Part shown: piece after piece, positions 25,726 to 58,419 of the stretch
How positions within the stretch are numbered: position 1 is the stretch's first letter
Layout of the letters: each line of letters begins with the position of its first letter
NCBI GenBank assembly: GCA_965219995.1
Contig: CBDCOX010000002.1
Span: forward strand, 4,544,001 to 4,608,000
Length of the DNA: 64,000 nucleotides
Source: Candidatus Latescibacterota bacterium
Lineage (GTDB): Bacteria > Latescibacterota > UBA2968 > GCA-2709665
Direction: 5' to 3'
The notes under the pieces: model-generated
Database searches by the model: none
What the model was told of the DNA's origin: nothing
What the model saw: the letters and a program-made list of their open reading frames with translations, nothing else
Made by a program: the position numbers and the translations under genes

Positions 25726-25761
25726 CGCCCGCCGAACGGCAGGGCAGGACGCGTTCGACTG

Positions 25762-27899: not shown

Positions 27900-27931
27900 C
27901 CCCGAAAGGTCAGTCAGGAAGCCTCAATTCG

Positions 27932-28000: not shown

Positions 28001-28002
28001 AT

Positions 28003-28136
28003 TTGCATAGCCGGTCAATATTAATTAATATCCACGTTTGAATGATCGGTCACGGGCGATGGTCTGATGGCTACGAGAGAGCGCAACCATTCGTGGTCGC
28101 TCTTGCGACCTTGTCTCTACGGGAGGGAGAATCGTC
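28003..28136 (+). promoter_or_regulatory. Promoter and structured 5' leader of paralogue 3
   Basis: TTGCAT-N17-TAATAT; leader with AGAGCG..ACCA-TTCG-TGGT-CGCTCT hairpin. Confidence 0.65.
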
Positions 28137-40396: not shown

Positions 40397-42682
40397 GTGG
40401 CTGTTTCCGCCCATCCACCGGAATCCAACAAGGTTACCTTCGCCCGGAGTCTGGGCTGTTTCGACGCATCGATGATCGGAATCGGCGCGATGATCGGCGC
40501 GGGGATCTTCGTGCTGACCGGAATCGCCGCGGGCGAGGCGGGACCGGCGTCGATCCTGGCGTTTGCCCTCAACGGCCTGGTGACGTTGATGACGGCGTTC
40601 TGCTATGCCGAACTCGCCTCGGCGATTCCCGAGGCCGGCGGCGGATATTCCTTCGTCAAGAAAGCGTTTCCCGGGCCGGTGGGATTCCTGTCCGGATGGA
40701 TGCTCTGGTTCGCCTATACGGTGGCGTGCAGTCTCTACGCGTTGGGATTCGCCGGCTACTTCTGGGAGTTTTTTCACAAGTACATGCCGGACGTCAGCCA
40801 CGCCATTCAGGCGACCGCGGGCGTACAGCCTTCCGTTGCACTTGTGACGGTAATCGTCAGCAGCGTCTTCGTCTGGTTGAACGTCCGCGGCACGGAGGTA
40901 ACGGGCAAGGCGGAGAATGTGATTACCATCTCCAAGATTCTCGTGCTTCTGGTATTTGTCTGGTACGGACTGGCGCACATTTTCGCGGCCCCCGAACAGG
41001 CTGCGAAGAGTTTCTCCCCCTTCTTCCCGAAGGGACTGGGGGGCGTACTGGTGGCCATGGGACTTACGTTTATCGCCTTTGAAGGCTACGATCTGATCGC
41101 GACGGTTGCCGAAGAGATCAAACAGCCCGAAACCAATATCCCAAAGGCCACGTTCATTTCCCTGGGCGTGACCGTTGTGGTATATCTGCTGATCGTTTTT
41201 GTCTCACTGGGCGCGGTTCAACCGGAGGCGACGACGTCGTGGGAGTTTCTGGGCCAGTACCAGGAAACGGCGATTGTGAAAGCGGCGGACAGCTTCATGC
41301 CTGCGTTTGGCGTGGCAACCATCGTATTCGGCGGGCTTCTGTCCACCATGTCCGCACTGAACGCGACCGTGCTGGCCTCCAGCCGCGTGGCGTTCTCCAT
41401 GGGCAGGGACCGCTGGCTGCCGCCGGGCATGGCCAGTATTCATGCGGACAGGCGGACGCCGCACATTGCGATTCTGGTTACGGGCGCGATTCTGACGGGC
41501 ATCGCGCTGCTTCTGCCCATCCACGTTGTGGGGTCCGCGGCCAGCCTCATGTTTCTGCTCACGTTTACGCTCGTAAATCTGTCGCTGCTCGTGCTTCGAC
41601 GCCGGGCGCCGGAAATCACGCGCAGGTACAAAGTACCCCTCTTTCCCTGGCTGCCTCTGGTTGGGGCGGCTTCGAATATGCTTCTGGCGATTTACCAGTT
41701 TCGTTTCGATCCCATGGCCTGGTACGTTGCGCTGGGATGGATTGTGGTGGGGTTCTTCGCGTATACCGTCCATTTCCGGAAGGAGTCGGGTGAGGCCGAG
41801 CCTCACGTGCTGGATGCGCTGCCCCTGGAGACCGCCCGCGCGCCTTACAGGGTTTTGGTACCCGTGGCCAATCCGAATACCATCGAGTCGCTGCTGGATA
41901 TTTCCATTCCCATTGCAAAAGCGAAGAACGGCGATCTGATCGTCAGCACGACCGTGGAGGTGCCGATCCAGCTGCCCATCCAGGAAGGCATGAAATATAT
42001 CAACCACCGGATGCCACTGTTGCGCGCGGCTCAGGCCTATACGCAGAAGCAGGACCTGCGCATCGTGTCGGACATCAGGGTGGCGCACCGGGTGGACGAA
42101 GGGATTCTCTCGGCCGTATCGGATGAGCACGCGGATCTGCTGGTGGTCGGATGGAAGGGGTTTACCACCACGCGCGAGCGGATATTCGGCGAGGTGCTCG
42201 ACAGGGTGGTGAACCGGGCCACGGCCGACGTGGTGGTTGTCAAGCTGCAGGATCAGGCCAGGTTCGATCGCATTTTGCTGCCCACGGCGGGCGGGCCGCA
42301 CACACGGTTCGCCGTTGAGCTGCTCGAACCGATCGTCGCGGCCTACGGTTCTCGTGTCACGGCCTGTTACGTCATCCCCGAAGGTGCGGACGCGGAGCGG
42401 GAAGAGGAGGCCATGGGATGGATGCGGCAGACGCTGCGGGACGCGAATCTGGGTGAGGTGGAGTGCCGCGCGATCCGGTCGCGGTCCGTACCGGCGGGCA
42501 TCGTGAGGGCGGGAGCGGATTTCGATCTGGTCGTGATGGGCGCGGCCAATACGGGTTTATTCCAGCAACTCCTGTTCGGTGAAGTGCCGGACCGGGTGGG
42601 ACGATACGCCAAGACTTCCGTAATGCTGGTCAGAAAGCGCGAAGGACGCGGGAAGGCCTGGCTGAGGCGATTGATGAGTTGA
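40397..42682 (+). CDS. APC amino acid permease with two C-terminal universal stress protein domains
   Basis: GAMIGAGIF, YAELASAIPEAGGGY, FIAFEGY, EEIKQP; USP-like RVLVPVANP and RILLPTAGGP. Confidence 0.9.
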   Translation: MAVSAHPPESNKVTFARSLGCFDASMIGIGAMIGAGIFVLTGIAAGEAGPASILAFALNGLVTLMTAFCYAELASAIPEAGGGYSFVKKAFPGPVGFLSGWMLWFAYTVACSLYALGFAGYFWEFFHKYMPDVSHAIQATAGVQPSVALVTVIVSSVFVWLNVRGTEVTGKAENVITISKILVLLVFVWYGLAHIFAAPEQAAKSFSPFFPKGLGGVLVAMGLTFIAFEGYDLIATVAEEIKQPETNIPKATFISLGVTVVVYLLIVFVSLGAVQPEATTSWEFLGQYQETAIVKAADSFMPAFGVATIVFGGLLSTMSALNATVLASSRVAFSMGRDRWLPPGMASIHADRRTPHIAILVTGAILTGIALLLPIHVVGSAASLMFLLTFTLVNLSLLVLRRRAPEITRRYKVPLFPWLPLVGAASNMLLAIYQFRFDPMAWYVALGWIVVGFFAYTVHFRKESGEAEPHVLDALPLETARAPYRVLVPVANPNTIESLLDISIPIAKAKNGDLIVSTTVEVPIQLPIQEGMKYINHRMPLLRAAQAYTQKQDLRIVSDIRVAHRVDEGILSAVSDEHADLLVVGWKGFTTTRERIFGEVLDRVVNRATADVVVVKLQDQARFDRILLPTAGGPHTRFAVELLEPIVAAYGSRVTACYVIPEGADAEREEEAMGWMRQTLRDANLGEVECRAIRSRSVPAGIVRAGADFDLVVMGAANTGLFQQLLFGEVPDRVGRYAKTSVMLVRKREGRGKAWLRRLMS

Positions 42683-46989: not shown

Positions 46990-47008
46990 GGGACCACACA
47001 ACCGCGTT

Positions 47009-47776
47009 CTATTCAAGGCGGCTTCCCGATTCCTCCGCGATCTGCGCGTGAAGGTCCGCGCTGCTGGACAGTATGTGTTCCTCCATGGCCTGCTGCGCGG
47101 CGTCGGCGTCGCCTTTCCGGAGGGCGCGCAGGACTCTCCCGTGCTCGTCCAGGGACATCCGGGCCCGCTCCTCCACCGTGTGGGTTGCGGGATCTGCAAG
47201 GCTGGCCTTGATCCACTGCTGAAGGTAGTTGCGTATCATGACGAGGAGGTTGCGGAGGATCGAATTCTGGGTAGCCCGGGCAATGGCCAGGTGGAACTGA
47301 ACGTCGAATTCCAGGAATTCACCGGGTTGATCGAGAGATGCTTCGATTCCCCGGATTGTCCGGTCGAGTTCCCGGAGATCGGCCTCCGTGGCGCGCGACG
47401 CGGCGAGGAAGGCGTTCCGCGTCTCCAGCATCAGCCGGGTTTCGACGAGATCCTTGACTTCCTTCGGATCCAGCAGCAGTCCCCAACTCAGGGATTTCTC
47501 CAGGTAACGGCCGGTGTCGTCGCTAACGAACGTGCCTTCTCCGACACGGCTTTCCAGGATGCCCATCACGGAGAGCGAGCGGAGCGCTTCCCTGAGAGAG
47601 GTGCGACCGACCTCGAACTGTTTGCACAGGCTTCGTTCGGGCGGCAGCCGATCGCCCGGTTTCAGCACGTCCCGGGAGATGAGGTCGATGATCTGGGAGA
47701 CGATTTCGTCGCTCAGGGACGTCCGTTTGACGGGTGTCATCTGCTCGATGGCCGGGGGAGGGCGTTTCAGGTTCAC
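47009..47776 (-). CDS. FadR/GntR family transcriptional regulator
   Basis: LKPGDRLPPER.L...FEVGRTSLREAL...GEGTFV wHTH; FCD domain FD.QFH, EH; start 47776 (GTG) or 47740. Confidence 0.93.
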   Translation of the reverse strand: MNLKRPPPAIEQMTPVKRTSLSDEIVSQIIDLISRDVLKPGDRLPPERSLCKQFEVGRTSLREALRSLSVMGILESRVGEGTFVSDDTGRYLEKSLSWGLLLDPKEVKDLVETRLMLETRNAFLAASRATEADLRELDRTIRGIEASLDQPGEFLEFDVQFHLAIARATQNSILRNLLVMIRNYLQQWIKASLADPATHTVEERARMSLDEHGRVLRALRKGDADAAQQAMEEHILSSSADLHAQIAEESGSRLE

Positions 47777-47825
47777 GCGAGATTTCCCTTTACAAAGCTG
47801 TGATTTTGGGTTAATCTTATATTTC

Positions 47826-47842
47826 AAATTGGTCTGACCATC
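47826..47842. promoter_or_regulatory. FadR-family operator (LldR/PdhR-like box)
   Basis: AAATTGGTCTGACCATC with palindrome TGGTC-T-GACCA in the divergent intergenic region. Confidence 0.72.
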
Positions 47843-47909
47843 ATCACATCGGTAAAAGAACAGACCGGGTACCACGCTGTCAAGAGAAAACTTGCCGGAG
47901 GATGGCGCG

Positions 47910-48539
47910 ATGGGCCGAACCGTCGATATTGGAACGCGCATCGAACTGGTGCCGATGGATCCGCACTTCCATGAGATCACAATTGGTCTTTACCTGCAGG
48001 AGCACAACGGTGCTCCCGTGTATCGTGTGCACACGTACAGCGGAAAATCGGGCGCCGAGCAACGAATCGCGTTCGTCTCCAACGCAATGGCGGTGTTGGG
48101 CGGAATGCGACAGACAACGGACGGCCTTCTGCGATTTCCGTGCGGCGATGCGCACCTGCTGGCTTGCCGGCGTGTCTTTCTGGAAGCATGCAAGCTGGCC
48201 TCCGGCGGCGAACTCAAAGCCCGGCCCCTGACAATCCTCGACAGGAAGTCGGGATTGAACATAACGGTGTCGAGCGTGGGTGAAGGCGTGTACCGGATTG
48301 GCGCCGAAGGTGAGAGCAAGGACGGCGCGCGGAGGGTTGCGGCGATTGCGGGCGGGCTGGCCAAGCTCGGAGAAATGCAGTCTCGAGGCCCGGACACGGT
48401 CGCTTTCGCGTGCGGGCACGCGCATAACGCCGTGGTGGGGCTTCTTCTGGTTCGTGCACCGAACGTTCGGGCAGCGGTCCGAGAACAGGAAATGGCAGGC
48501 GCACGGGGCGTTCTGGCCGCGCCCAGCGAGCAACGTTAG
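47910..48539 (+). CDS. Hypothetical protein with duplicated FxCGxxH motif, first gene of the corrinoid operon
   Basis: GGAGG RBS; LRFPCGDAH and VAFACGHAH. Confidence 0.7.
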   Translation: MGRTVDIGTRIELVPMDPHFHEITIGLYLQEHNGAPVYRVHTYSGKSGAEQRIAFVSNAMAVLGGMRQTTDGLLRFPCGDAHLLACRRVFLEACKLASGGELKARPLTILDRKSGLNITVSSVGEGVYRIGAEGESKDGARRVAAIAGGLAKLGEMQSRGPDTVAFACGHAHNAVVGLLLVRAPNVRAAVREQEMAGARGVLAAPSEQR

Positions 48540-48574
48540 TCGAAAAACAGGATTCCAGCCGGGAGAATTGAAAT

Positions 48575-49621
48575 ATGGCGACTCAAACAGTGGGCCCGAT
48601 GACCGGCCGTGAGCGGGTTCTGGCGGCGCTGAACCGGGAGCCGGTGGACCGGACGCCGGTATGCAATCCCACGTCCGTGGCGACGGTGGAGCTGATGGAT
48701 CTCGTGGACGCGCCGTTTCCTCACGCGAACAGGAACCCGGAACTGATGGCCCGGCTGGCCGCGACCGGGCACACCGAGTTGGGGTTCGATACGATCATGC
48801 CCGTGTTCACGATCATCCAGGAGTCGTCCGCGCTGGGTTGCAAGATCCAGTGGGAACAGAAGGACAACTGGCCCACGGTGAGGATGCGCGAGCCCATCTG
48901 GGAAGACGTGGACGATATCCGGATTCCGCCCGACCTTCTCACGCACCAGGATACGAAGTGCGTGCTGGATGCGATCCGGATTCTGAAGAAGGAATACGGG
49001 GACGACGTGGCGATTATCGGGAAGACGATGGGCCCGTGGTCGCTGGGATATCACTGCTTCGGGGTGGAGCCCTTTCTGCTCATGTCGCTGGACGACCCGG
49101 ACAAGACGAAGGCGTGCCTGGACAGGATGAAGGAAGCGACGGTGGACTTCGGGGTGGCGCAGATCGAGGCGGGCGCGGACGCGCTCACGCTGCCGGATCA
49201 CGCGACGGGCGACCTGGTGAGCGGGGAGTACTACAAGCGGTATCTGCGCGACCTGCACATCGAATTCGTGGAGCGGATCCCGATTCCGCTGATTCTGCAC
49301 ATCTGCGGACGGACCGTGGATCGGATGGAATATATCGCGCAGACGGGGATGCACGCGTTCCATTACGACTCCAAGAACGAGCCGGAAGAATCCATGGCGG
49401 CGGTCAAGGAGCGGATCTCGCTGGTGGGCAACGTCAACAATCCTGAGACGCTGTTTTCCAAAGGGCCCGAGGCGGTCCGCCAGGAGGTCGTCAACAACCT
49501 GGACGCCGGCGTGCATCTCGTGGGTCCCGAGTGCGCGATCCCGCTGCAGACGTCAATCGAGAACCTGAAGGAGATCCCCGGGGCGGTCCGGGACTGGCAC
49601 CGGGAGCACGCGGCAGGATAA
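48575..49621 (+). CDS. MtaA/CmuA-family (URO-D fold) methyltransferase
   Basis: MTGRERVLAAL....VDR.PV, GPWS, QIEAGAD, LHICG and PECAIP Zn ligands. Confidence 0.9.
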   Translation: MATQTVGPMTGRERVLAALNREPVDRTPVCNPTSVATVELMDLVDAPFPHANRNPELMARLAATGHTELGFDTIMPVFTIIQESSALGCKIQWEQKDNWPTVRMREPIWEDVDDIRIPPDLLTHQDTKCVLDAIRILKKEYGDDVAIIGKTMGPWSLGYHCFGVEPFLLMSLDDPDKTKACLDRMKEATVDFGVAQIEAGADALTLPDHATGDLVSGEYYKRYLRDLHIEFVERIPIPLILHICGRTVDRMEYIAQTGMHAFHYDSKNEPEESMAAVKERISLVGNVNNPETLFSKGPEAVRQEVVNNLDAGVHLVGPECAIPLQTSIENLKEIPGAVRDWHREHAAG

Positions 49622-49637
49622 GGGGGGCAGGAGCGCG

Positions 49638-50408
49638 ATGGCGGAACTCACTGATATCGGTAACGAATTCATCCGTGACGAAATCGAGGAGTTTCTCGAG
49701 CGGGAGGACGAGCGGGAGCGGGCGATCGCCACGTTTGCCGGCGTCACCCCCGATATGCAGGCGATTGCCGCGGCCCTGATCGACGGCGACCATCACGAGG
49801 TGGACGCGCTCACCAAAGAAGCACTGGATGCGGGTACCGGGGCGCTGGAGGTGATGGACGACGGGCTGATCGCGGGAATGGGCATCGTGGGGATCAAATT
49901 CCGGGAGAACTTCATCTTCGTGCCTGAAGTGCTGGCCTGCGCCCGGGCGATGAAGGCCGGGATGGCCTATATCGAGCCCATTCTGTCCGCATCGGGCGTC
50001 GAGCCGATCGGCACGGTCATTATGGGTACGGTAAAGGGCGACCTGCACGATATCGGAAAGAACCTCTGCATCATGATGCTTCGCGGCGCGGGGTTTGTGG
50101 TCCACGATCTGGGGGTGGACACGTCGGAAGACGAATTCCTGGATGCCGTGGAGGAGCACGGCGCGCCGCTGCTGGGGATGTCGGCGCTGCTGACGACGAC
50201 CATGCCCAATATGGGCAAAACGATCGAGGCGTTCATAGACGCGGATTTGCGCGAAGACGTCAAGATCATGGTGGGGGGCGCGCCCGTCACGCAGGAGTTC
50301 GCCGACGATATGGGCGCCGACGGGTACGGCAAAGACGCGATGGCGTGCGTGTCCCTGGCCAAGGACCTGCTCGACGAGACGAAGTCCGAGACCAACCTGA
50401 ATGCGTGA
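49638..50408 (+). CDS. Corrinoid (B12-binding) protein
   Basis: Cap domain LIAGM..VG..F....FVPEVL; GTVKGDLHDIGKNL, SALLTTTM, VGGAP. Confidence 0.95.
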   Translation: MAELTDIGNEFIRDEIEEFLEREDERERAIATFAGVTPDMQAIAAALIDGDHHEVDALTKEALDAGTGALEVMDDGLIAGMGIVGIKFRENFIFVPEVLACARAMKAGMAYIEPILSASGVEPIGTVIMGTVKGDLHDIGKNLCIMMLRGAGFVVHDLGVDTSEDEFLDAVEEHGAPLLGMSALLTTTMPNMGKTIEAFIDADLREDVKIMVGGAPVTQEFADDMGADGYGKDAMACVSLAKDLLDETKSETNLNA

Positions 50409-50692
50409 GCCCTACCGTGCGGAAAATCGACAAAGAGGAATATCAGAAGCGGCTGGACAGGATTACCGAACTGTTCGCAGGCATGATCGCCCACGCGGAT
50501 GAGCTTTCAACCGTACGGTGCCCGTATAAGAACCGTTTCGATGAGTGTACGGCGAAGTTCGGCTGCAGAAACCAGCGGAAGCCCCGCCCGGGCGGGACGC
50601 TGCTGATGTGCGGCGGAGACGACAAGCTCGACTATCGCGGCGCATGGGAGACGGAAGCGAAACCGGGTGCGTACTTCGGCAGCGAGGAGTAG
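50405..50692 (+). CDS. Small four-Cys protein
   Basis: GTGA overlap with the corrinoid gene stop; C-x8-C-x5-C-x14-C. Confidence 0.65.
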   Translation: MSPTVRKIDKEEYQKRLDRITELFAGMIAHADELSTVRCPYKNRFDECTAKFGCRNQRKPRPGGTLLMCGGDDKLDYRGAWETEAKPGAYFGSEE

Positions 50693-50708
50693 CGTGCTGG
50701 AAGGCCCG

Positions 50709-52328
50709 ATGGGTACGATATCTCACGACGGGAAACGGAAGGAGCTTGCAGCCGGCAGGACCATCTTCGACTATGCGGATGAACTGGCGGTCCAGGTGCC
50801 CACCTCGTGCGGCCGCACCGGGCACTGTCACGAGTGCGTGGTTGAAATCAGGCGCGGCATGGACGCGCTGCGGCCCAGGAACGAGGTGGAGTCGTTCCTG
50901 CGGGAGCACTACCGCCTTGCGTGCCAGGCGGTGGTTGAAGACGACCGGGCCGATATCGAATTCTCGCCGTTGAGACGCAAGCCCAAGATTCTGGCAAGTA
51001 CGCTGGAAAAGTCGGTCGATCCGGACCCCCTGGTCACGCGCCGGGGGGACGTTGTCTATTACGACGACGTTGCCGTCGACAGGTATCGGGGCGGCCTTTA
51101 CGGCATCGCGATCGATCTGGGCACGACAACGGTGGTGATGGATCTCGTGGACCTGGAAACGGGGAGGAGCGTCCACGTCAGTTCATTCGAAAACCCGCAG
51201 CGTTTCGGCGGCAGCGACGTGATGCACCGCATCTCCTATGACGGGGAGTTTCAGGGCGAACTGCAGAAGGCGGTGGTCAATGCGATCAACCACGAAATCG
51301 TCGAACTCGGAAAACGCTTCGGCTTTGCCCGCCAGGAGATTTACGAGGTCGTTGTAGCGGGCAACTCCTCGATGCGGGATATCTTCTTCAGGCTGGACGT
51401 GCAAAGCATCGGCCAGCGACCGTACAAATCCGGTGTGGAGCGCGCCTATCTCAACGGCGAGCGGGAGACGACCTCCCTGCTGAAGGGTTCCCGGCGCCTC
51501 GGCGTGCGCGCCAATCCGAGGGCGATGGTCTACGGGATGCCGCTGATCGCCAGCCACGTGGGGGCGGACACCGCGGCCGACCTCGTTGCAATCGACCTGG
51601 CGTCTCAGGATGGTGTGGTGATGCTCGTGGACGTGGGGACCAACACCGAGGTTGTCGTGGGAAGTTCCGGCCGGCTGCTCACAGCCTCCTGTCCCGCCGG
51701 GCCCGCGTTCGAGGGCGGACTGGTCCGGTACGGGATGCCCGGACACGAAGGCGCCATTGAGTCGATCCGGCTGACGGACGACGGCTTCGAGTACCTGACA
51801 ATCGGACGCGTCGAACCGGAGGGAATTTGCGGGTCGGGGCTGATCGATCTGCTCGCGGAACTCCGGCGGCACGACCGAATGGCGCCCAAGGGCATGTTTG
51901 CCGGCAGGTCGTACGAGGTGCCGGTCGTTCCCGAGTACGGGATCACATTGTCCCGTGAAGACGCCAGCAACCTGGCCCAGGCCAAAGCCGCGAATTTCTG
52001 CGGGCAGTTCATCCTGATGCGACACCTCGGGATTGGACCGGAAGACGTAGACACGCTCTACCTGGCCGGCGGATTCGCGAATTACGTGAACGTAAGGAAC
52101 GCGATCGAGATCGGATTTCTGGCGCCGATCGCCGAAGACCGGGTCGTGAAGATCGGGAATGCCGCGGTCCAGGGCGCGCGCGAGGTGCTGCTTTCGCGCG
52201 AAAAACGGGCGTCCGTGGAAGCGCTGGTGAAGAAGATCGAACACGTCGAGCTCGAGACGACGCCGGACTTCTTCGAGGTGTTCGTGGAGGGCTGCCAGTT
52301 CAAGCCGATGCCGACTAGGCTAAATTAA
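50709..52328 (+). CDS. ATP-dependent reductive activator of corrinoid proteins (RACo, ASKHA fold with N-terminal 2Fe-2S domain)
   Basis: SCGRTGHCHEC..RLACQ, DLGTTT, NPQ.FG.DVM.RI, DVGTNTE, AGPAFEG, GICGSG, LAGGF. Confidence 0.93.
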   Translation: MGTISHDGKRKELAAGRTIFDYADELAVQVPTSCGRTGHCHECVVEIRRGMDALRPRNEVESFLREHYRLACQAVVEDDRADIEFSPLRRKPKILASTLEKSVDPDPLVTRRGDVVYYDDVAVDRYRGGLYGIAIDLGTTTVVMDLVDLETGRSVHVSSFENPQRFGGSDVMHRISYDGEFQGELQKAVVNAINHEIVELGKRFGFARQEIYEVVVAGNSSMRDIFFRLDVQSIGQRPYKSGVERAYLNGERETTSLLKGSRRLGVRANPRAMVYGMPLIASHVGADTAADLVAIDLASQDGVVMLVDVGTNTEVVVGSSGRLLTASCPAGPAFEGGLVRYGMPGHEGAIESIRLTDDGFEYLTIGRVEPEGICGSGLIDLLAELRRHDRMAPKGMFAGRSYEVPVVPEYGITLSREDASNLAQAKAANFCGQFILMRHLGIGPEDVDTLYLAGGFANYVNVRNAIEIGFLAPIAEDRVVKIGNAAVQGAREVLLSREKRASVEALVKKIEHVELETTPDFFEVFVEGCQFKPMPTRLN

Positions 52329-52406
52329 AGCGGCGGTATGCTGGGTTGCCTTTGGGGAGAATCTCACGAAAGTCCGAACATTTCGCCCTGTCTGGGAGCG
52401 TCGATG

Positions 52407-52577
52407 TTCGTTGAGCATGTCGATACGTGGTCATTGAGCTTGTCGAAATGCCCGTGTTTCGTCACCCCTTAGAATGGCTCCAGGCGCACCAACGGGTGCC
52501 CTTTGCAGGTTTTCGCCGACCCTTCGACCCTTCGACAAGCTCAGGGCAACGCATGCTCAGGGAGCGGCTCAGGGCAC
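52407..52577. repeat. Cluster of TTCGACAAGCTCA-family palindromic repeats forming an inverted pair
   Basis: GTCATTGAGCTTGTCGAAATG (52430-52450) and CCCTTCGAC-CCTTCGACAAGCTCAGGGC..GCTCAGGGAGCG-GCTCAGGGC. Confidence 0.75.
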
Positions 52578-52715
52578 AGTCGGTTCTTGTGCTTTTTTCA
52601 GACGTTGTACTTAGCTTGTTGACCGGCTGTTGGCCGGTCGACGCGCCGGCCGAATTCAGCGACGCCATATCCGCGACGGAAGACTAAAGTCACAACTAAA
52701 ATCGAGCACATTCGC

Positions 52716-54317
52716 ATGGCGATACATTCTGGAAAATCCGATCCGGACCGAGGGGACGGGGAGAAGCATACCCTGCGGCATCTGCTCGAGGAAACGGACG
52801 AATTTGTCGTCTGCGTGGAACTGGTCAATTCCCGCGGGGTGATCACCGAACGCCGCGGGCGGCAGGTTCTGGATCTCGCGCGGGCGCTTGCCGACCATCC
52901 GGGCGTGCACGCGCTGAGCATCACCGACAATCCGGGCGGAAACGCCACGAACAGTCCGGACACGATGGGGATCGACCTGCTGGGCCGGGGGCAGGAGGTG
53001 ATCATCCACATTTCGTGCAAGGACTGGAACCGGAACGCGTTGCTGAGCAGGGCCTGGGAACTGGCGAGCGGAGGATTCGAAAACGTGCTGGCGCTGTCGG
53101 GCGACTATCCCGCGGACGGATACCGCGGGCAGGCGGACGGCGTGTTCGATACCGATTCGGTGGGTCTGTTGAGGATGTTCTCGGAAATGAATTCGGGGAT
53201 GCGCCTCGGAGGCGGCAGGCGCGATCAGGTATTGCAACCCACACAATTCTTCCCGGGCGCGGTGGTCAACAACCACAAGAAATATGAGCGCGAGGTGATG
53301 CCGCAATATTTCAAACTTGCGAAAAAGATCCGGAACGGCGCCGGATTCATCATCAACCAGATCGGTTACGACGCCCGCAAACAGGACGAGTTGCTGAAGT
53401 ACATGGCCCTTCACGGTCTCCCCACGCCCGTGCTCGCCAACGTCTACGTGCTCAGCCCCGCGGCAGCCAGGTTTTTTCACGCGGACAACATCCCCGGCGT
53501 GATCGTAACCGACGAACTGCTTGCGCTCACGCAGAGGCATGCCCGTTCGCGAGACCGGGGCAGGGCCTTCTTTCTGGAATTCGCCGCCAGGCAGTGCGCC
53601 ATTGCCAGAGGACTGGGATATCGCGGCGTCTATCTTGGGGGACACCTGAAGTTCGAGGACTATGCGCGTATCCTTGAGATTCTTGGCGAATACGGAGACG
53701 AGGACTGGAAGGACTTTGTGGATGGGATTCTCTTCCGTCAGCCCGGGGAGTTCTTCTTCTTCGAACCCGATACGGAAACGAGGCTCAGTTCGAACGAGGT
53801 CAACCGCAAATACCGGCATTCGAAGCAACCCGACGTCCTGCGGGCCGCCAGGAGCCGGGTGTCCGCGGGCTACCGCTTGAATCGATTCGTCCATGAAAAT
53901 GTCTTCGAAAAGGAAAAGCCGGCCTTTCGTATCGGAAGAAAATTATTCGAGGCCATGGACCGCGCCGGAAGCGGCGTCCGGAGGGCCGCGCATGGCGCGG
54001 AGCAGGCGGTGAAGATCCTGGGCTTCGACTGCCGGGACTGCGGCGACTGTTCGCTGCCGGATATCGCGTTTCTCTGTCCCGAGTCGCAGTGCGTCAAGAA
54101 CCAGCGGAACGGACCGTGCGGCGGAACCCGCCGGGGCCGGTGCGAAGTGGGAGAAAAGGAATGCATCTGGTCGCTGGCCTACGAACGGCTCAAGGCATAC
54201 GGAGAGGAAGAGAAGATGCTGGACGGGCCAGTGGTCTTCAAGGACGGCGCCCTGAAAGGCACCAGCGCCTGGGCCAATGTATTTCTGGAGCGGGACCACC
54301 GCGCACGTACCAGATGA
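52716..54317 (+). CDS. metF: Methylenetetrahydrofolate reductase fused to C-terminal MetV-like (MTHFR_C) Cys-rich domain
   Basis: ITDNPGG, HISCKDWNR, LALSGDY, KKI.NGA.F.INQ.GYD; CRDCGDC..CPESQCVKNQRNGPCGG..CEV..CIW. Confidence 0.88.
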   Translation: MAIHSGKSDPDRGDGEKHTLRHLLEETDEFVVCVELVNSRGVITERRGRQVLDLARALADHPGVHALSITDNPGGNATNSPDTMGIDLLGRGQEVIIHISCKDWNRNALLSRAWELASGGFENVLALSGDYPADGYRGQADGVFDTDSVGLLRMFSEMNSGMRLGGGRRDQVLQPTQFFPGAVVNNHKKYEREVMPQYFKLAKKIRNGAGFIINQIGYDARKQDELLKYMALHGLPTPVLANVYVLSPAAARFFHADNIPGVIVTDELLALTQRHARSRDRGRAFFLEFAARQCAIARGLGYRGVYLGGHLKFEDYARILEILGEYGDEDWKDFVDGILFRQPGEFFFFEPDTETRLSSNEVNRKYRHSKQPDVLRAARSRVSAGYRLNRFVHENVFEKEKPAFRIGRKLFEAMDRAGSGVRRAAHGAEQAVKILGFDCRDCGDCSLPDIAFLCPESQCVKNQRNGPCGGTRRGRCEVGEKECIWSLAYERLKAYGEEEKMLDGPVVFKDGALKGTSAWANVFLERDHRARTR

Positions 54318-54327
54318 GGGGAACACT

Positions 54328-55374
54328 ATGCAACTGGATGGCAGGGCCGGCGAATTTGTCGTCATCGGCGAAAACATCCATACCACACGCGTTGTCCTGA
54401 GGAGAGGACGGCTCGTGGTGAAGAAACCCGGTGGAGGGGAGGCGGTCCGATTCTTCGACACACGGAAGCGACGCCGCTTTCTTGCCATTCCCCAGGATAT
54501 CCGGCAGACGCAGGACTACGAGGAGGGTCGGGTCAAACACGTCAAGATTGCCGTGCAGGCGGCGATGTCCGGTCAGTCGCCGCAGGCCGATGACGGGCTG
54601 GCCTATCTGCACCGGATGGTCCAGCGCCAGGTGGACGCGGGAGCGGACTATCTGGATCTGAACGTGGACGAAGTCTCGCTGCGTCTGAAGGAGCAGAAGA
54701 AAGCCATGCGGTGGCTGGTGGGCGTCGTACAGAAGATAAGCCCGATTCCGATATCGGTGGACTCCTCCAACGTGGAAACGATCGGGGACGGGCTCAATGC
54801 CTGCGACGGCCGGGCCGGACGGCCGCTGCTGAATTCGGCCTCGCTGGAGCGACTGGAGGCGCTGGACCTGGCCGTGAGGTACAACGCCCGGGTTGTCGTG
54901 ACCGCCGCAGGCGAAAGCGGGATGCCGCAGGACGCTGCGGACCGCGTCGCGAATGCGTCCCGCATGGTCGACGCGGCGCTGTCCAGGGGGATCGCGATCG
55001 AGGATGTTTTCGTGGATGCCCTGGTCTTTCCCATCTCCGTGGACGGGGGATTCGGCAACCACTGCTTCGAGGCCATCCGGACGCTGCGCGCGAATTTCGG
55101 CCCGGGGATTCACGTGACGGGCGGGTTCAGCAACGTCTCTTTCGGGCTGCCGTGCCGGCGCCTCATCAACGACGTGTTCACGATCCTCGCGGTCGAGGCC
55201 GGGGCGGACAGCGGGATCGTCGACCCGGCCATCAGCAGCCCGGAGCGCGTTTTCTCCATGGACCGGGAGACGGAACCCTACCGGCTTGCGGAAGACATGC
55301 TCCTGGGGCGGGATCGCATGTGCAAGAACTACCTGCGCGCGTATCGAAAGGGTACGCTGGACGCTTACCGTTAA
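54328..55374 (+). CDS. Methyltetrahydrofolate:corrinoid methyltransferase (pterin-binding, MeTr/MetH folate domain)
   Basis: VIGENIH, QVDAGADYLDLNVD, ISVDSS, LLNS, FVDALV, GGFSNVSFGLP..R..IN. Confidence 0.9.
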   Translation: MQLDGRAGEFVVIGENIHTTRVVLRRGRLVVKKPGGGEAVRFFDTRKRRRFLAIPQDIRQTQDYEEGRVKHVKIAVQAAMSGQSPQADDGLAYLHRMVQRQVDAGADYLDLNVDEVSLRLKEQKKAMRWLVGVVQKISPIPISVDSSNVETIGDGLNACDGRAGRPLLNSASLERLEALDLAVRYNARVVVTAAGESGMPQDAADRVANASRMVDAALSRGIAIEDVFVDALVFPISVDGGFGNHCFEAIRTLRANFGPGIHVTGGFSNVSFGLPCRRLINDVFTILAVEAGADSGIVDPAISSPERVFSMDRETEPYRLAEDMLLGRDRMCKNYLRAYRKGTLDAYR

Positions 55375-55399
55375 CGAATCGGGGAGGATCCGGGAGGAG

Positions 55400-56461
55400 A
55401 TGAAGACATTTCTGGACAGGCTGGAAGATTCCAGCCCTATGGTTTACGACGGAGGATTCGGTTCGGAACTGTTCAAAGGGCGTATCGAACTGACGAACAG
55501 CGCGCTCGCAAACGAACTGCATCCGGACGCGGTGGTCGATATCCACTCCGCCTATATCGCAGCGGGAACCGACGTCATCGGGACCAACACTTTCGTGGCG
55601 TCGCCACTGCATCTGGAGATGGCGGGCAAAGCGGGGAACGAGGCCGGCAAGATCGCCGGGCTGGCCGTGGAACACGCGAGAACGGCAATCGAACAGTGCG
55701 GCCGGGGGGTCCATGTTGCGGGCTCCGTCGGTCCGTCGCCGGGCGCTATCGAGTCGGACGCGGGCGATACGGTATTCGGTATTGCGGACAGGAAGGCGAG
55801 GGCGGCGCACGAGCAGGTCATCCATGCGCTGGCGGAGGCGGGGGTAGACCTGATCTGTATCGAGACCATGTTCTCCGCCAAAGAAGCCGCCATTGCGGCG
55901 GACATTGCCAGGAAGACCGGATTGCCCGTCGCAATCAATCTGACGTGCAAATACACGAAAGACCGGAAGACGGGCGAGGTGGTCTACCGGACGGACTGGG
56001 GGCATTCAGCGGATGACCTGCTGGATTTTCTGGGCTCCGGAGAGTTTTCAGGCGGAGAAAACCTGCTGGAGCACGTGCAAATCATCGGGATGAACTGCGG
56101 TGCGGAGACGCGCCGGGTGGAGCATACCGGGATGCCATACGCAATCAACGGGATGCGGCAGTTCACGGATGCAATGTCCGCGCGGGGCGTCAACGGGATC
56201 AGGTTGATGGCCTATCCCAACGCGGGGCTCCCGCAGCTGGAGAGAAAGACAGGACGGACGACGTATTCGCAGACCGAGGAGGAAATGGCGCATTGTGTTC
56301 CGGAATTGATCGGCGCGGGTGCCTTCATCGTCGGAGGGTGTTGCGGGACGGGGCCGTCGCATATCCGCGCTATACACGGGATGTTGAACGGCGGGGCCGC
56401 CAATGACGGAAAAGCCTGGCGTTCGGCTGGCGCCCGAGAACTGACAAATGGGCGGGACTGA
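55400..56461 (+). CDS. Homocysteine S-methyltransferase domain protein (stand-alone MetH N-terminal module)
   Basis: DGGFGSEL, H.AYI.AG.DVI.TNTF, GSVGP, IETM, GMNC, PNAGLP, GGCCGT.P.HI. Confidence 0.92.
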   Translation: MKTFLDRLEDSSPMVYDGGFGSELFKGRIELTNSALANELHPDAVVDIHSAYIAAGTDVIGTNTFVASPLHLEMAGKAGNEAGKIAGLAVEHARTAIEQCGRGVHVAGSVGPSPGAIESDAGDTVFGIADRKARAAHEQVIHALAEAGVDLICIETMFSAKEAAIAADIARKTGLPVAINLTCKYTKDRKTGEVVYRTDWGHSADDLLDFLGSGEFSGGENLLEHVQIIGMNCGAETRRVEHTGMPYAINGMRQFTDAMSARGVNGIRLMAYPNAGLPQLERKTGRTTYSQTEEEMAHCVPELIGAGAFIVGGCCGTGPSHIRAIHGMLNGGAANDGKAWRSAGARELTNGRD

Positions 56462-56482
56462 CAGAGCGCGAAAGGGTGACAC

Positions 56483-56749
56483 GTGGCCGAGTACCAGGTG
56501 CTCTACTGGAAGGAAATCCCCGCCCAGGTGCGGGTTTTCGACGGGAAGCGGCGCGTCGCGCGGCAGATGCCCCCGGAGTTTCAGGAGGCGATCGACCGGC
56601 GGGCGATGCAGGAAGGGCTGGCCGGAACCGACGCGTACCTGGCGCATTGGCAATGGAGTGAACGTCGCGAGCGCCGAGGCGACCCGCAGGAAATCCTGGA
56701 GGCGGTTATGGAAGAACTCGAACGGACGTACGGCGAACGGGCAGGATAA
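56483..56749 (+). CDS. Small 'Virulence_fact'-family protein associated with corrinoid/MetH clusters
   Basis: YWKEIPAQV...FQEAIDRRAM..GL..TDAYL..W. Confidence 0.75.
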   Translation: MAEYQVLYWKEIPAQVRVFDGKRRVARQMPPEFQEAIDRRAMQEGLAGTDAYLAHWQWSERRERRGDPQEILEAVMEELERTYGERAG

Positions 56750-56786
56750 ACCGCAGCGCGCCCGACAGGTTTCTGGAGGCAAGGAG

Positions 56787-56811
56787 AGAGCCGGAGTTTC
56801 CGGCTCTTTTT
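56787..56811 (+). terminator. Intrinsic terminator of the corrinoid cluster
   Basis: AGAGCCGGA-GTT-TCCGGCTCT plus T run. Confidence 0.75.
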
Positions 56812-56835
56812 GTTTAACGGCGAACGTCGTACTCG

Positions 56836-58419
56836 CTACAACACGCCTGCCCCCTGAACGGGAGACGCGACCGTGAGCCTTTCCCGGACCCTGCGTGGCT
56901 CATAGTACCTGCCGCGCATGGCATCGATGATGTCCTGCACGCCGTCAGATCCGACCAGGACCATCATGCTTCCGCCCAGGCCGGCGCCGGATATCTGCGC
57001 GCCCACCGCGCCCGCATCCAGGGCAATGTCGACCATTTCATCGATCTCCGGGATGCTGCAATTGTAGTCGCCCGGTTGCATGTGGAGGTCTTTTGCCGGG
57101 TCGAATCGCGGCGCGTTCATGTCGATGCGGTCGCCGTCGTGCGAGACGTTCATCAACTCGCCGTAGAGGTCCACCCGGTTCCGGTTCAGGACGTCCTTGA
57201 GATCTCTGCTTCGCGCGGATTCGGCGATACCGTAGGCAATGACCATCCGGATATGGTATCCGCCGGCCGGTTCCTCGTGGGTGGCGAACTGCTGCTCGAG
57301 AAACGTCTCTTCGCCCGGCAACCGGCGCAGGAGCTCCCGGCGGTCGATCCGTTCCGGCAGAGACGCTATCAGCGCGTAGATTTCCGGTTGGGCGAGGCAT
57401 TCAACCACGTCGCCCAGGTGGAATTTCTTCTCGACGTCCAGATCCTTTCTGTCCGCCACGACCCTTCGGATCGATTCGGGATGGCGCGCTTCCAGGCCGT
57501 TTCGAAGAAAGACCTCTCCGATCTCGTACGTTGCGGTCTTTTCGTTGAATTTCTGGCCGGCCGATCCGGTCTTGTTGGCCTGGATTCCCGAGTCGAAGAT
57601 GATGATCTGATAGCCGTCCGGAAACGGCAGATAGGCGTCGATCAACAATTCCGGCAGGGTTTTCATATGGGTAATTCTACCCAGCCGGCCGCACTTGATC
57701 GCGGCGTGGTCGCCGAAACCGCCGCGTGTTCCGACGTACCATTCCGAGGTGCCCGCGTATCTCACGAACTGCCCGTCGTCCAGGACGATATCGTTGACGT
57801 GCGTCATGATCTCCGTCGTCGCGACGACAACCGCGGACGAAGAACTCAGGCCGCCCATGTCCGGCAGGCTGCTGCCCATGACTCCGTCGAATCCGCGCAG
57901 TTTCCTGCCGGGATAGCGGGTGTGCAGGTATGCCGGCGGCGCCTGCAGTTTGGTAATCCAGTCCTCGTTGACACCGGCGGCCTTGCGTTCGTCGGTCTTT
58001 TCCTGCGTCCACTCCAGCCACTCGGCATCGGTACGGATCGGCGAGTCCGGGCAGATTTCCGGCAGATGAAAACGACGGGTCCCGTAAGCCGGATCCAGAT
58101 TGTGCACCTCGACCTGATCGTCGTCTCTTCCGGAGTAACAGATGAGAATCTCTTTGTCAAGGGAAATGGGGTTGATGAAGGCGCCCCGGTGGTCGGCGTG
58201 CATCCCAACCGTGTTCAACCGGCCCGGCGCCCTGACGAAACCGACGTCTCTCTCACCGAAGATCTCCCTGAATCGCATCGCGGTCGCCAGGAGGGCGCCG
58301 AGACGTTCTTCGACAAGCTCCTCGCTGTCGCCGTAGACGGACCGAAGGCGGGAGATCAGATCATCGTTCCGGCCCCGAATCGCACGGACCCACTCAGGCG
58401 TGTTCTTCTGTCCGATCAT
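56836..58419 (-). CDS. Galactokinase-like GHMP sugar kinase
   Basis: RAPGRLN..G.H.D, GGLSSSSA, G.LMN.SH, GAQISGAGLGG. Confidence 0.88.
   Translation of the reverse strand: MIGQKNTPEWVRAIRGRNDDLISRLRSVYGDSEELVEERLGALLATAMRFREIFGERDVGFVRAPGRLNTVGMHADHRGAFINPISLDKEILICYSGRDDDQVEVHNLDPAYGTRRFHLPEICPDSPIRTDAEWLEWTQEKTDERKAAGVNEDWITKLQAPPAYLHTRYPGRKLRGFDGVMGSSLPDMGGLSSSSAVVVATTEIMTHVNDIVLDDGQFVRYAGTSEWYVGTRGGFGDHAAIKCGRLGRITHMKTLPELLIDAYLPFPDGYQIIIFDSGIQANKTGSAGQKFNEKTATYEIGEVFLRNGLEARHPESIRRVVADRKDLDVEKKFHLGDVVECLAQPEIYALIASLPERIDRRELLRRLPGEETFLEQQFATHEEPAGGYHIRMVIAYGIAESARSRDLKDVLNRNRVDLYGELMNVSHDGDRIDMNAPRFDPAKDLHMQPGDYNCSIPEIDEMVDIALDAGAVGAQISGAGLGGSMMVLVGSDGVQDIIDAMRGRYYEPRRVRERLTVASPVQGAGVL

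Follow-up and report, generated by a model that had tools for sequence, protein, structure and literature searches.

The region at 47910-56749 of the window, by which we mean the whole stretch of 64,000 nucleotides analysed here from a Candidatus Latescibacterota bacterium, is a real and conserved bacterial gene cluster that handles methyl groups via a vitamin B12 carrier towards folate and methionine. Compared over 80 related loci, taken up to 10 kb on each side of the gene for an MtaA-like methyltransferase, the cluster falls into two modules. The core module (A) comprises orf215, an MtaA/CmuA-type zinc methyltransferase, a corrinoid protein, a Cys4 module and a RACo activase, and the variable module (B) a MetF-MetV fusion, a pterin methyltransferase, a MetH-type homocysteine methyltransferase and a PF13769 protein. 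Tentatively, and with somewhat less than even confidence, the region can be read as a regulated two-module corrinoid methyl-transfer locus in which a methyl group would pass from a donor to the corrinoid and on to methionine or THF. A shared corrinoid hub has already been published for glycine betaine (MtgBCDE); here the donor enzyme would be of the MtaA/CmuA type, together with orf215.

Gene content of the region

All the genes that an earlier note on this DNA had listed could be recovered, each on the plus strand: the MtaA/CmuA-type enzyme, the corrinoid protein, RACo, the MetF-MetV fusion, the pterin and homocysteine enzymes and three small proteins. The observation made in that note is thereby confirmed. 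Two features directly upstream, a regulator and a palindromic site, were absent from it. The features are as follows.

47009..47740, minus strand: GntR-family regulator with FCD ligand domain, divergent from the operon (Pfam GntR 70.3, FCD 90.3 bits)
47830..47840: palindrome TGGTCTGACCA, candidate operator, about 70 nt upstream of orf215
47910..48539, plus strand: orf215, 209 aa, unnamed family, constant partner of the MtaA-like gene
48575..49621, plus strand: MtaA/CmuA-family zinc methyltransferase, URO-D fold (Pfam URO-D 226.5 bits)
49638..50408, plus strand: corrinoid (B12) carrier, cap and Rossmann domains (Pfam B12-binding_2 78 bits, B12-binding 95.3 bits)
50417..50692, plus strand: Cys4 module, 91 aa, four conserved cysteines (no Pfam match)
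50709..52328, plus strand: RACo/RamA-type ATP-dependent reductive activase with 2Fe-2S ferredoxin, middle and ASKHA domains (Pfam Fer2 34.4, Raco_middle 135.3, RACo_C_ter 220.1 bits)
52716..54317, plus strand: MTHFR with a C-terminal Cys-rich MetV-like domain in one ORF (Pfam MTHFR 41.6, DUF5981, "MTHFR C terminal", 89.1 bits)
54328..55374, plus strand: pterin-binding methyltransferase of the MeTr/AcsE/MetH folate-domain type (Pfam Pterin_bind 86.5 bits)
55403..56461, plus strand: homocysteine-binding zinc methyltransferase of the MetH N-terminal domain type (Pfam S-methyl_trans 180.7 bits)
56483..56749, plus strand: small PF13769 protein ("Virulence factor", Virulence_fact; Pfam 76.9 bits)

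The regulator start at 47740 is the first Met ahead of the HTH domain, and RACo lies in an ORF of 50667-52328 with a likely ATG at 50709. The ORF of the pterin gene opens at 54277 and its start (54328) is an internal Met directly past the MTHFR stop, while the ORF of the homocysteine methyltransferase opens at 55286 with a likely start at 55403. A further ORF (52427-52687), conserved in one of the 80 loci, is probably not a gene. The earlier note had also stated that MtaB/MttB-type enzymes and a SAM reactivation domain are absent, and a Pfam scan of some 50 window ORFs (at least 80 aa long outside 47910-56749) indeed turned up neither MtaB nor MttB nor the SAM reactivation domain Met_synt_B12. 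Homologues of folD and purU and a DUF1638 protein are likewise absent from the window.

The URO-D protein passes the curated NCBIfam cut-offs of TIGR01463 mtaA_cmuA (252.8 vs 235.4) and PRK06252 (265.8 vs 244) and falls under the equivalog cut-offs of MtaA (241.7 vs 400) and MtbA (204.6 vs 600). Its nearest solved relative is MtaA (4ay7, E 1.1e-54, residues 9-337), with which its His-x-Cys...Cys motif aligns, and H242, C244 and C320 are invariant among 40 sequences (mean column identity 90%). To our knowledge, the zinc ligands of such enzymes do not exclude a halide substrate. A His-Cys-Cys zinc sphere is the mark of S-/Se-methyltransferases in this superfamily, O-demethylases having a carboxylate for one Cys (PMC10418091, available part).

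In the corrinoid carrier, which is 74-98% identical across 36 loci, the DxHxxG motif reads D-L-H-D-I-G in the translation. The Cys4 module is a separate gene in the window, its TAG stop at 50690-50692 preceding the RACo ATG (50709) in another frame; in relatives it extends RACo at the N-terminus, and the frame is continuous into RACo in 14/33 loci. RACo itself scores 286.4 bits against NCBIfam AcsV, under the cut-off of 800.

With regard to module B, the MetF-MetV fusion matches NCBIfam PRK08645 (109.8 bits) in its MTHFR half and has no PDB sequence match at E <= 0.001, and the pterin enzyme scores 203.6 bits against PRK07535, under the cut-off of 259. The best solved relatives of the homocysteine methyltransferase are methionine synthases (8g3h, E 1.3e-19), and its translation shows a Cys and a Gly-Gly-Cys-Cys-Gly motif. 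The PF13769 protein gave a confident AlphaFold2 model (pLDDT 92.2) with no PDB fold match at E <= 0.001.

Conservation, orf215 and regulation

The corrinoid gene lies directly downstream of the enzyme gene in 36/80 loci overall and in 23 of the 24 loci outside Poribacteria (five other phyla and unassigned records). Enzyme and corrinoid protein are joined in three natural proteins (619-634 aa; 78-81% identity with the window enzyme), one of which has a C-terminal part 74% identical to the window carrier. These findings favour the view, already put forward in the earlier note, that the MtaA-like enzyme would work on the adjacent corrinoid protein. In comparisons between phyla, identity is 85-90% for the enzyme and 78-87% for the carrier but only 14-47% at fourfold-degenerate sites, close to unrelated sequence, which indicates strong purifying selection and not recent transfer; such conservation would fit proteins with multiple partners.

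The link to methionine synthesis is looser. Genes for the homocysteine methyltransferase, the pterin enzyme and MTHFR lie within 10 kb in 17/80, 25/80 and 27/80 loci, respectively, so that a methyltransferase "wired to a fully split methionine synthase", as the note had it, is an overstatement. Profiles for corrinoid, RACo, pterin, homocysteine and MTHFR genes had no match in any of the six frames in 44/80 loci, searched up to 10 kb per side (less than 4 kb downstream in nine of the 44), and the MtaA-like enzyme can thus persist without this neighbourhood. In Poribacteria, the orf215/MtaA-like pair stands alone in 43/56 loci, among unrelated housekeeping genes. Conservation of the cluster, the check that had been proposed, thus gave a divided answer: since 44/80 loci have none of those partners, the MtaA-like gene occurs without the split MetH genes in most Poribacteria, whereas the same does not hold outside that phylum. 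The cluster has no conserved transporter or substrate-forming enzyme among its neighbours, which counts against the reading favoured here.

The three small proteins noted previously as accessory are real and conserved. The Cys4 module is kept in 33/36 corrinoid-bearing loci, as is RACo (33/36), and the PF13769 protein occurs, with the pterin and homocysteine genes, in 20/80 loci, that is 20/36 of those bearing a corrinoid gene. For orf215, "accessory" is too weak: it was matched by tblastn in 78/80 loci, lies at most 128 nt upstream of the URO-D gene in 66 of these 78, and is the closest partner of the MtaA-like gene, rather than the split MetH genes. It has no Pfam or NCBIfam match. Its two halves, each with one Cys-x3-His pair, align with each other (hhalign probability 96.4%, E 1.3e-9), which identifies an internal duplication, and C78, H82, C168 and H172 are invariant in 40 sequences, suggesting that orf215 may bind a metal. 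The AlphaFold2 model (pLDDT 89.5, pTM 0.87) has a predicted beta-alpha repeat fold, for which Foldseek found no PDB match at E <= 0.001 (best E 0.1, TM at most 0.22 among the matches listed). A search of 1.84 billion proteins gave 274 representatives at E <= 0.001, and a separate one gave 1729 clusters at E <= 1e-5; among the 120 listed of these 1729, those named by their source are all "hypothetical protein" and none carries a precomputed Pfam domain. It can be hypothesized that orf215 is a subunit of the MtaA-like enzyme.

The GntR/FCD regulator is found in 28/36 corrinoid-bearing loci and in 0/44 without a corrinoid protein. The palindrome TGGTCTGACCA is probably an operator of the GntR/FadR type: GGTC-N-GACC is present upstream of orf215 in 28/28 regulator-bearing loci and in 0/50 loci without regulator, and the loci, 1.48 Mb in total, contain 44 such sites altogether. 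Because regulator and palindrome co-occur in this way, the operon looks inducible. A search for riboswitches had no hit, either at the gathering threshold or at E <= 1. By eye, a promoter-like TTTACA / TTAATCT pair can be seen a short distance upstream of the palindrome; a consensus promoter scan gave no call there.

Proposed mechanism and direction of methyl flow

In the donor-to-corrinoid reading, the URO-D-fold enzyme and orf215 would act together in methyl transfer between a small methylated compound and the dedicated corrinoid protein in its Co(I) state, and RACo with the Cys4 module would re-reduce oxidised Co(II) to Co(I) at the expense of ATP and a low-potential electron. Module B would link the same methyl-corrinoid to homocysteine, yielding methionine, and to THF, yielding methyl-THF, which the MetF-MetV reductase could then oxidise to methylene-THF. 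The donor would probably be an S-methyl compound (methylthio-carboxylate, methyl sulfide or sulfonium), with Se-methyl compounds and methyl halides as less likely candidates, and the divergent GntR/FCD repressor would keep expression off until its ligand appears. The sharing of a single carrier by all three methyltransferases, the direction of flow and the class of substrate are what we infer; the interpretation of the earlier note is, overall, partly supported.

Precedents exist for the main steps. In the same family, MtpA demethylates methylmercaptopropionate onto cob(I)alamin, a donor-side precedent (10.1101/548461, available part). The adjoining split MetH parts, RACo/RamA-type activase and MTHFR support the hub logic of the note. 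A shared-carrier hub of this kind has been shown genetically for glycine betaine: in Ruegeria pomeroyi, MtgC and MtgD take part in glycine betaine demethylation as well as in methionine synthesis, and MetF2 lies beside the pterin enzyme (PMC12478193, available part). A split MetH that lacks PF02965 and has a RamA-like activase is an established arrangement (PMC5764234).

Thermodynamics disfavours the transfer of a methyl group from a thioether to cob(I)alamin, according to the available part of 10.1101/548461, and the flow may therefore run in the opposite direction. The pterin enzyme would then load the corrinoid from methyl-THF, and the MtaA-like enzyme with orf215 would methylate a thiol, selenol or metalloid in parallel to homocysteine, in biosynthesis or detoxification. 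The reaction of methyl-corrinoid with thiolate is the favourable direction of the characterised MtaA, MtbA and MtsA, and the nearest solved relative is MtaA; in the known fused forms (CmuA, MtsD/F/H), however, whose architecture the three fusions share, the enzyme is a donor-side methyltransferase, and a ligand-responsive repressor suits a catabolic or salvage operon. MtpA is robust in this reverse direction and poor in the other (10.1101/548461, available part), and ClMlp2 methylates selenide from methylcobalamin (PMC10418091, available part), but MetF-MetV beside the pterin gene resembles the MetF2 of methyl-oxidising pathways (PMC12478193, available part). On balance, we regard reversal as unlikely.

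A lower probability still is given to a self-sufficient module A, in which orf215 would be a new donor-activating methyltransferase in the role of MtaB/MttB, with a Cys2His2 metal site, and the MtaA-like enzyme an acceptor-side thiol methylase. The constancy of orf215 as a neighbour, its invariant Cys/His pairs, its confident predicted fold lacking a PDB match, the absence of an MtaB- or MttB-type gene from the window and the loci where module A has no module B gene within up to 10 kb per side (e.g., L071) all speak for it. Yet a 209-aa beta-alpha repeat is unlike the donor-side methyltransferases known to us, which are all TIM barrels, and its metal site is predicted from conserved residues.

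Equally improbable in our view is a halomethane pathway like that of CmuA/CmuB, in which chloro-, bromo- or iodomethane would methylate the corrinoid, the pterin enzyme would pass the group to THF and MTHFR would oxidise it. The enzyme belongs to the family that NCBI names MtaA/CmuA, its fused relatives have the CmuA domain order, and the adjoining pterin methyltransferase and MTHFR paralogue recall the cmuB, metF2 arrangement. The window lacks a folD or purU homologue, however, its enzyme has a thiol methyltransferase as best solved relative, and the relatives found in 72,556 plasmid records are all below 27% identity.

That the modules are unlinked, module B with corrinoid protein and RACo being a plain split methionine synthase plus MTHFR and the orf215/MtaA-like pair serving another corrinoid system, would suit the solitary pair of most Poribacteria but is very unlikely given the corrinoid gene that follows the pair elsewhere, the enzyme-carrier fusions and the regulator site, which lies ahead of orf215 and thereby of the entire row of genes.

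Comparison with known corrinoid systems

The closest parallels are MtgBCDE from R. pomeroyi (PMC12478193, available part) and the three-part MetH from Phaeobacter inhibens (PMC5764234). Like the window, they have separate proteins for homocysteine binding, for pterin binding and for the corrinoid, a RamA/RACo-type activase instead of a SAM reactivation domain, an MTHFR paralogue adjoining the pterin enzyme, and one carrier proposed to work with a catabolic donor enzyme as well as in methionine synthesis. The donor enzyme differs, being MtgB (MttB superfamily, glycine betaine) there and an MtaA/CmuA-type zinc enzyme with orf215 here; moreover, the MTHFR of the window is fused to a MetV-like domain, there is no DUF1638 protein, and the genes form one row, whereas the R. 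pomeroyi locus tags are scattered (e.g., SPO1863, SPO1884, SPO2041, SPO2160; PMC12478193, available part).

The methanogen enzymes MtaA, MtbA, MtsA and MtpA share fold, family and His-x-Cys...Cys zinc motif with the window enzyme, and each works with a small cognate corrinoid protein kept reduced by an ATP-dependent activase. As in the proposed role, thioethers can be used as methyl source by MtpA and MtsA. Unlike them, the window protein is bacterial, falls under the MtaA/MtbA equivalog cut-offs, has no coenzyme M context seen, has orf215 as a constant partner and is followed by THF and homocysteine enzymes as acceptors.

In the chloromethane pathway of Methylobacterium, CmuA has an MtaA-like domain that acts on a corrinoid domain, the pterin methyltransferase CmuB passes the methyl group to THF, and there is a dedicated MTHFR paralogue. 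These three traits have counterparts in the window, and three relatives of its enzyme have the fused CmuA architecture, although in the window enzyme and carrier are separate genes, folD and purU are not nearby, and a homocysteine methyltransferase, RACo and orf215 are added.

Finally, the Type 1 mlp clusters (Kountz and Balskus, PMC10418091) encode, as far as the available part of that source describes, bacterial coenzyme M methyltransferase homologues with a His-Cys-Cys zinc site, like that of the window. Their proposed role, similar to the one considered here, is to break down methyl-sulfur or methyl-selenium compounds, the methyl group going back to methionine. They require at least two different Mlps, have no THF methyltransferase and occur in strict anaerobes, whereas the window encodes one such enzyme together with the pterin and homocysteine enzymes.

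Gene content and family assignments

Ten genes are found in a single row at 47910-56749, all on the plus strand, next to a regulator gene that is absent from the earlier note on this DNA. Each of the gene families which that note had assigned to the row from sequence alone was confirmed with Pfam, and its statement that neither an MtaB/MttB-type enzyme nor a SAM reactivation domain is present agrees with the Pfam scan of about 50 window ORFs, in which none was matched. The features are as follows.

47009-47740, minus strand: GntR/FCD regulator (Pfam)
47910-48539, plus strand: orf215, a 209-aa protein of an unnamed family
48575-49621, plus strand: URO-D enzyme, MtaA/CmuA-like (Pfam URO-D at residues 11-340, 226.5 bits)
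49638-50408, plus strand: corrinoid carrier (Pfam B12-binding_2 and B12-binding; DxHxxG visible in the translation)
50417-50692, plus strand: Cys4 module, 91 aa
ORF from 50667, start at 50709, to 52328, plus strand: RACo activase (Pfam Fer2, Raco_middle and RACo_C_ter)
52716-54317, plus strand: MTHFR-MetV (Pfam MTHFR and MetV-like DUF5981 in a single ORF)
ORF from 54277, start at 54328, to 55374, plus strand: pterin enzyme (Pfam Pterin_bind)
ORF from 55286, start at 55403, to 56461, plus strand: homocysteine enzyme (Pfam S-methyl_trans)
56483-56749, plus strand: PF13769 protein (Pfam Virulence_fact)

The family placement of the URO-D protein is based on curated HMM cut-offs together with a PDB match. 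Its NCBIfam scores are above the family cut-offs of TIGR01463 (252.8 vs 235.4) and PRK06252 (265.8 vs 244) and below the equivalog cut-offs of MtaA (NF040654, 241.7 vs 400) and MtbA (NF041608, 204.6 vs 600), and among solved structures it is closest to MtaA, the methylcobalamin:coenzyme M methyltransferase (4ay7, E 1.1e-54). The protein is thus a predicted member of the MtaA/CmuA family (TIGR01463) outside MtaA proper and MtbA. The residues H242, C244, and C320 (His-x-Cys ... Cys) are invariant among 40 enzyme sequences and line up with the matching residues of 4ay7; we take them to be the zinc ligands. His-Cys-Cys zinc ligation in such enzymes is described in PMC10418091.

Regarding methionine synthesis, the parts of a split MetH (PF02574, PF00809, and PF02607 with PF02310) are each found on their own protein in the window. 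The homocysteine protein has MetH as its nearest solved relatives, and a Cys and a Cys-Cys motif are visible in its translation. A RamA/RACo-type activase is present in the window, and Met_synt_B12 (PF02965) has no match among the about 50 window ORFs scanned. This domain make-up fits a putative split B12-dependent methionine synthase with a RamA-like activase. The MTHFR domain and MetV (PF12225) share one ORF, which corresponds to a MetFV-type domain make-up; MetFV from C. ljungdahlii is reportedly ferredoxin-dependent.

Related loci and modular organization

Among 6900 candidates scored, 3523 relatives of the URO-D protein were found at E <= 1e-20, the best 120 of these 3523 showing 84-95% identity. 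One genome per species was scanned, yielding 493 encoding stretches, and the closest 80 were kept as loci with flanks of up to 10 kb. According to their record titles, they come from Candidatus Poribacteria (56), Candidatus Latescibacterota (13), Lentisphaerota (3), Acidobacteriota (3), Gemmatimonadota (2), and Pseudomonadota (1), with 2 unassigned; the loci nearest to the window are from Latescibacterota, at 96% identity. Two of the loci, L035 and L036, lie about 60 kb apart on the same Acidobacteriota contig; each holds a copy of the cluster, their URO-D proteins are identical, and one copy sits at the contig end, which reflects either a real duplication or an assembly repeat.

When the 80 loci were searched by tblastn with the window proteins, orf215 was matched in 78, the corrinoid protein in 36, the Cys4 module and RACo in 33 each, the GntR regulator in 28, MTHFR in 27, the pterin enzyme in 25, the PF13769 protein in 20, and the homocysteine enzyme in 17. 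An 86-aa ORF at 52427-52687 was rejected as a gene because it had a tblastn match in just 1 of the 80. With 78 co-occurrences, orf215 is therefore the constant partner of the MtaA-like gene, and it is located at most 128 nt upstream of the enzyme gene in 66 of these 78 loci. The corrinoid gene lies directly downstream of the enzyme in 36 of the 80 loci and, among those from outside Poribacteria, in 23 of 24. It is missing from 44 loci (43 from Poribacteria, 1 unassigned), in which profile HMMs for the corrinoid, RACo, pterin, homocysteine, and MTHFR proteins gave 0 matches in six frames, with 9 of the 44 having less than 4 kb of downstream sequence. The corrinoid-less loci constitute separate Poribacteria clades in the enzyme tree and adjoin unrelated genes, e.g., beta-lactamase-like, beta-propeller, cytochrome bc1, and IMP dehydrogenase genes and a cell-division cluster.

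The order and spacing of the genes from MTHFR onward vary among loci: four other genes are found between RACo and MTHFR in some Poribacteria, and the homocysteine and PF13769 genes are located upstream of orf215 in two loci. Considering this variable layout together with the co-occurrence, we therefore read the region as two modules, namely a core (orf215, enzyme, carrier, Cys4 module, and RACo) and a looser set (MTHFR-MetV, pterin enzyme, homocysteine enzyme, and PF13769 protein). In 10 Poribacteria loci, RACo and MTHFR have a gene for a PhyH-type dioxygenase between them, and an Ldh_2 gene (malate/L-lactate dehydrogenase family 2) occurs between the PF13769 and homocysteine genes in five loci of the sample (L006, L007, L009, L029, and L038, all Poribacteria). 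The PF13769 protein accompanies the pterin and homocysteine methyltransferase genes; its fold is confidently predicted (pLDDT 92.2) and has no PDB match, its Pfam name, 'Virulence factor', gives no hint of a methyltransferase context, and no mention of it was found in the literature searched.

The small ORF between carrier and RACo displays four conserved cysteines. In 19 of 33 loci it is a separate gene, as in the window, where its stop codon precedes the RACo start by 16 nt and belongs to a different frame, while in the other 14 its frame continues directly into RACo as an N-terminal extension; besides 50417-50692 of the window, the observation is documented by loci L004-L011, L014, L029, L032, L038, L062, and L066. 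We regard the Cys4 module as a probable detachable N-terminal part of the activase; to our knowledge, RACo has not been described with an extension of this kind.

Three natural fusions of 619-634 aa, found by searching proteins of 610-2000 residues, combine URO-D, B12-binding_2, and B12-binding domains, as in the domain architecture of CmuA. They share 78-81% identity with the window enzyme, and the C-terminal part of one of them is 74% identical to the window carrier, so that these fusions link enzyme and carrier. In comparisons of the window with loci from other phyla, the enzyme is 85-90% identical, or 79-90% over a set that includes L004, L012, L015, L036, L066, and L073, and the carrier 78-87%; for RACo, MTHFR, orf215, and the pterin enzyme the range is 48-75%. 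A recent horizontal transfer was rejected as the origin of the high cross-phylum identity, given that fourfold-degenerate sites in these comparisons are only 14-47% identical; the protein identity thus points to long and strong purifying selection. On enzyme and carrier this selection is of a strength unusual for metabolic enzymes, and such constraint fits proteins that dock with several partners.

orf215 and the predicted regulatory unit

No Pfam or NCBIfam match was obtained for orf215, Pfam at E <= 1 returning a chance-level match alone, and the ESM Atlas gave no usable match. The family is small, with 274 representatives at E <= 0.001 in a search of 1.84 billion proteins, and among the 120 relatives listed all those named by their source are called 'hypothetical protein'. 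In 40 aligned members, C78, H82, C168, and H172 do not vary at all, and C86 and C94 hardly do. The protein consists of two homologous halves (hhalign probability 96.4%, E 1.3e-9) with one Cys-x3-His in each, these Cys/His pairs forming a putative metal site. The predicted structure is confident (pLDDT 89.5, pTM 0.87), and Foldseek found no PDB entry at E <= 0.001. The order of predicted strands and helices looks alike in the orf215 halves and in PF13769; the idea that each half is a PF13769-like domain was dropped because the profile comparison was negative (probability 0.08%). Nine longer family members were scanned with Pfam for informative fusions and none qualifies, since one is a fragment joined to a URO-D start, one contains a Recombinase domain, and the other seven gave no match.

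That orf215 is so nearly always paired with the enzyme demands an explanation in biochemical terms and singles out an uncharacterized family; this apparent partnership is the most original part of the cluster. It is possible, if doubtful, that orf215 founds a new family of pseudo-dimeric Cys2His2 metalloproteins acting as obligatory subunit or donor-activating enzyme of an unusually conserved MtaA-type methyltransferase. The two proteins would then make up a new entry point by which bacteria of at least six phyla, marine and for the most part associated with hosts, channel methyl groups from an abundant methylated compound directly into methionine and the folate pool.

Between the GntR/FCD regulator gene and orf215 lies the palindrome TGGTCTGACCA (47830-47840), which in Poribacteria and in the window follows, as judged by eye, a similar promoter-like stretch. 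All 28 loci bearing the regulator have a GGTC-N-GACC site upstream of orf215, and none of the 50 without it does, the total being 44 sites in 1.48 Mb of loci. As regulator and palindrome pair across loci, they indicate a predicted repressor-operator unit heading the gene row. FCD-type regulators commonly have small carboxylates as ligands, and we therefore suspect the signal to be a methylated carboxylate or a product of one. A repressor with a defined operator, if confirmed as predicted, offers a practical way to search for the substrate. In 47600-57100, consensus scanning reported 1 promoter-like site, where 2.1 were expected, and 15 weak terminator-like sites, where 7.3 were expected; none was informative. 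Rfam returned no known RNA or riboswitch at the gathering threshold in the whole window, nor at E <= 1 in 47000-57000. A second GGTC-N-GACC copy at window position 3068, far from the cluster, may be due to chance or be a further regulator target.

With regard to the surroundings, an amino-acid permease fused to two universal stress protein domains (40397-42679) is a possible transporter for the system; its family (f39) also precedes the cluster in 7 related loci (6 Latescibacterota, 1 Gemmatimonadota). An unusually long galactokinase-like GHMP kinase of 527 aa (56836-58419, minus strand) is convergent with the cluster end and kept in 5 of the 80 loci. The window also encodes three tandem paralogues of about 620 aa each with a C-terminal FlgD_ig domain (23869-29984), a TonB-dependent-receptor-like gene (CarboxypepD_reg and Plug) upstream of them (16914-19988), and a 712-aa protein combining Mur-ligase and RimK ATP-grasp domains in a cyanophycin-synthetase-like make-up (3237-5372).

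Proposed methyl flow and comparison with known systems

Families, gene order, fusions, and the regulator-site pairing come directly from the present data, and the rest of the scheme is taken from established knowledge of these families. MtaA-type enzymes exchange methyl groups between a corrinoid and zinc-bound sulfur or selenium (a halide for CmuA), pterin enzymes of the MeTr/MetH type exchange them between a corrinoid and THF, PF02574 enzymes pass them to homocysteine, and RACo/RamA restores Co(I) in an ATP-driven manner. On combining this knowledge with the precedents below, we tentatively favor a flow in which the MtaA-like enzyme would transfer the methyl group of an S-methyl donor to the carrier, from which it would pass either to homocysteine, giving methionine, or to THF. 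Genetics in R. pomeroyi has shown that one carrier serves the donor, pterin, and homocysteine enzymes and that MetF2 oxidises methyl-THF (PMC12478193). A split MetH with a RamA-like activase has been demonstrated in P. inhibens, DUF1638 being described there as associated with split MetH and not strictly defining (PMC5764234). The His-Cys-Cys zinc site is said to mark S-/Se-methyltransferases and not O-demethylases, and in that preprint enzymes of this type are proposed to take methylthio compounds apart, the methyl group being returned to methionine (PMC10418091). A precedent for the donor side is MtpA, a family member reported to demethylate methylmercaptopropionate, though against an unfavorable equilibrium (10.1101/548461).

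Of the alternatives, reverse flow along this chain is unlikely, and a self-contained core module with orf215 as a new donor enzyme appears quite improbable. A halomethane pathway is hardly likely either; in the CmuA/CmuB route of chloromethane utilisation, folD and purU are found next to metF2. If the favored flow from an S-methyl donor holds true, hard-to-culture marine bacteria of several phyla would own a B12-dependent route for methyl groups from a sulfur-methyl or similar compound to methionine and one-carbon metabolism, which would raise the demand for B12 in these communities and draw down methylated sulfur or halogen compounds.

No description of the cluster or of orf215 was found in the literature searched; relatives of the locus might be mentioned in supplementary gene lists, e.g., the mlp cluster tables. 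A tblastn search of plasmid records for CmuA or other family members found 10 records, all below 27% identity and unusable for a tree. In methyltransferase I of aromatic O-demethylases, one or both zinc Cys ligands are replaced by a carboxylate or a non-ligand according to PMC10418091, whereas both Cys of the window enzyme are invariant among the 40 sequences. The split MetH of P. inhibens has a DUF1638 (PF07796) protein alongside, unlike the window, where no ORF scanned gave a match. The type 1 mlp cluster is described in PMC10418091 with at least Mlp2 and Mlp3, i.e., two or more URO-D-family genes, and with no THF methyltransferase. The MtgBCDE, CmuAB/MetF2, and mlp clusters have a logic like that of the window locus, which however belongs to none of them, because the donor enzyme MtgB is of another family than the window enzyme, CmuA carries in one polypeptide the methyltransferase and corrinoid domains that are separate genes in the window, folD and purU have no Pfam match in the window, and the two or three URO-D genes of the type 1 mlp cluster contrast with a single one plus a Pterin_bind gene. 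Should the favored flow be correct, the glycine betaine/methionine synthase hub would extend to a second, unrelated class of donor enzymes.
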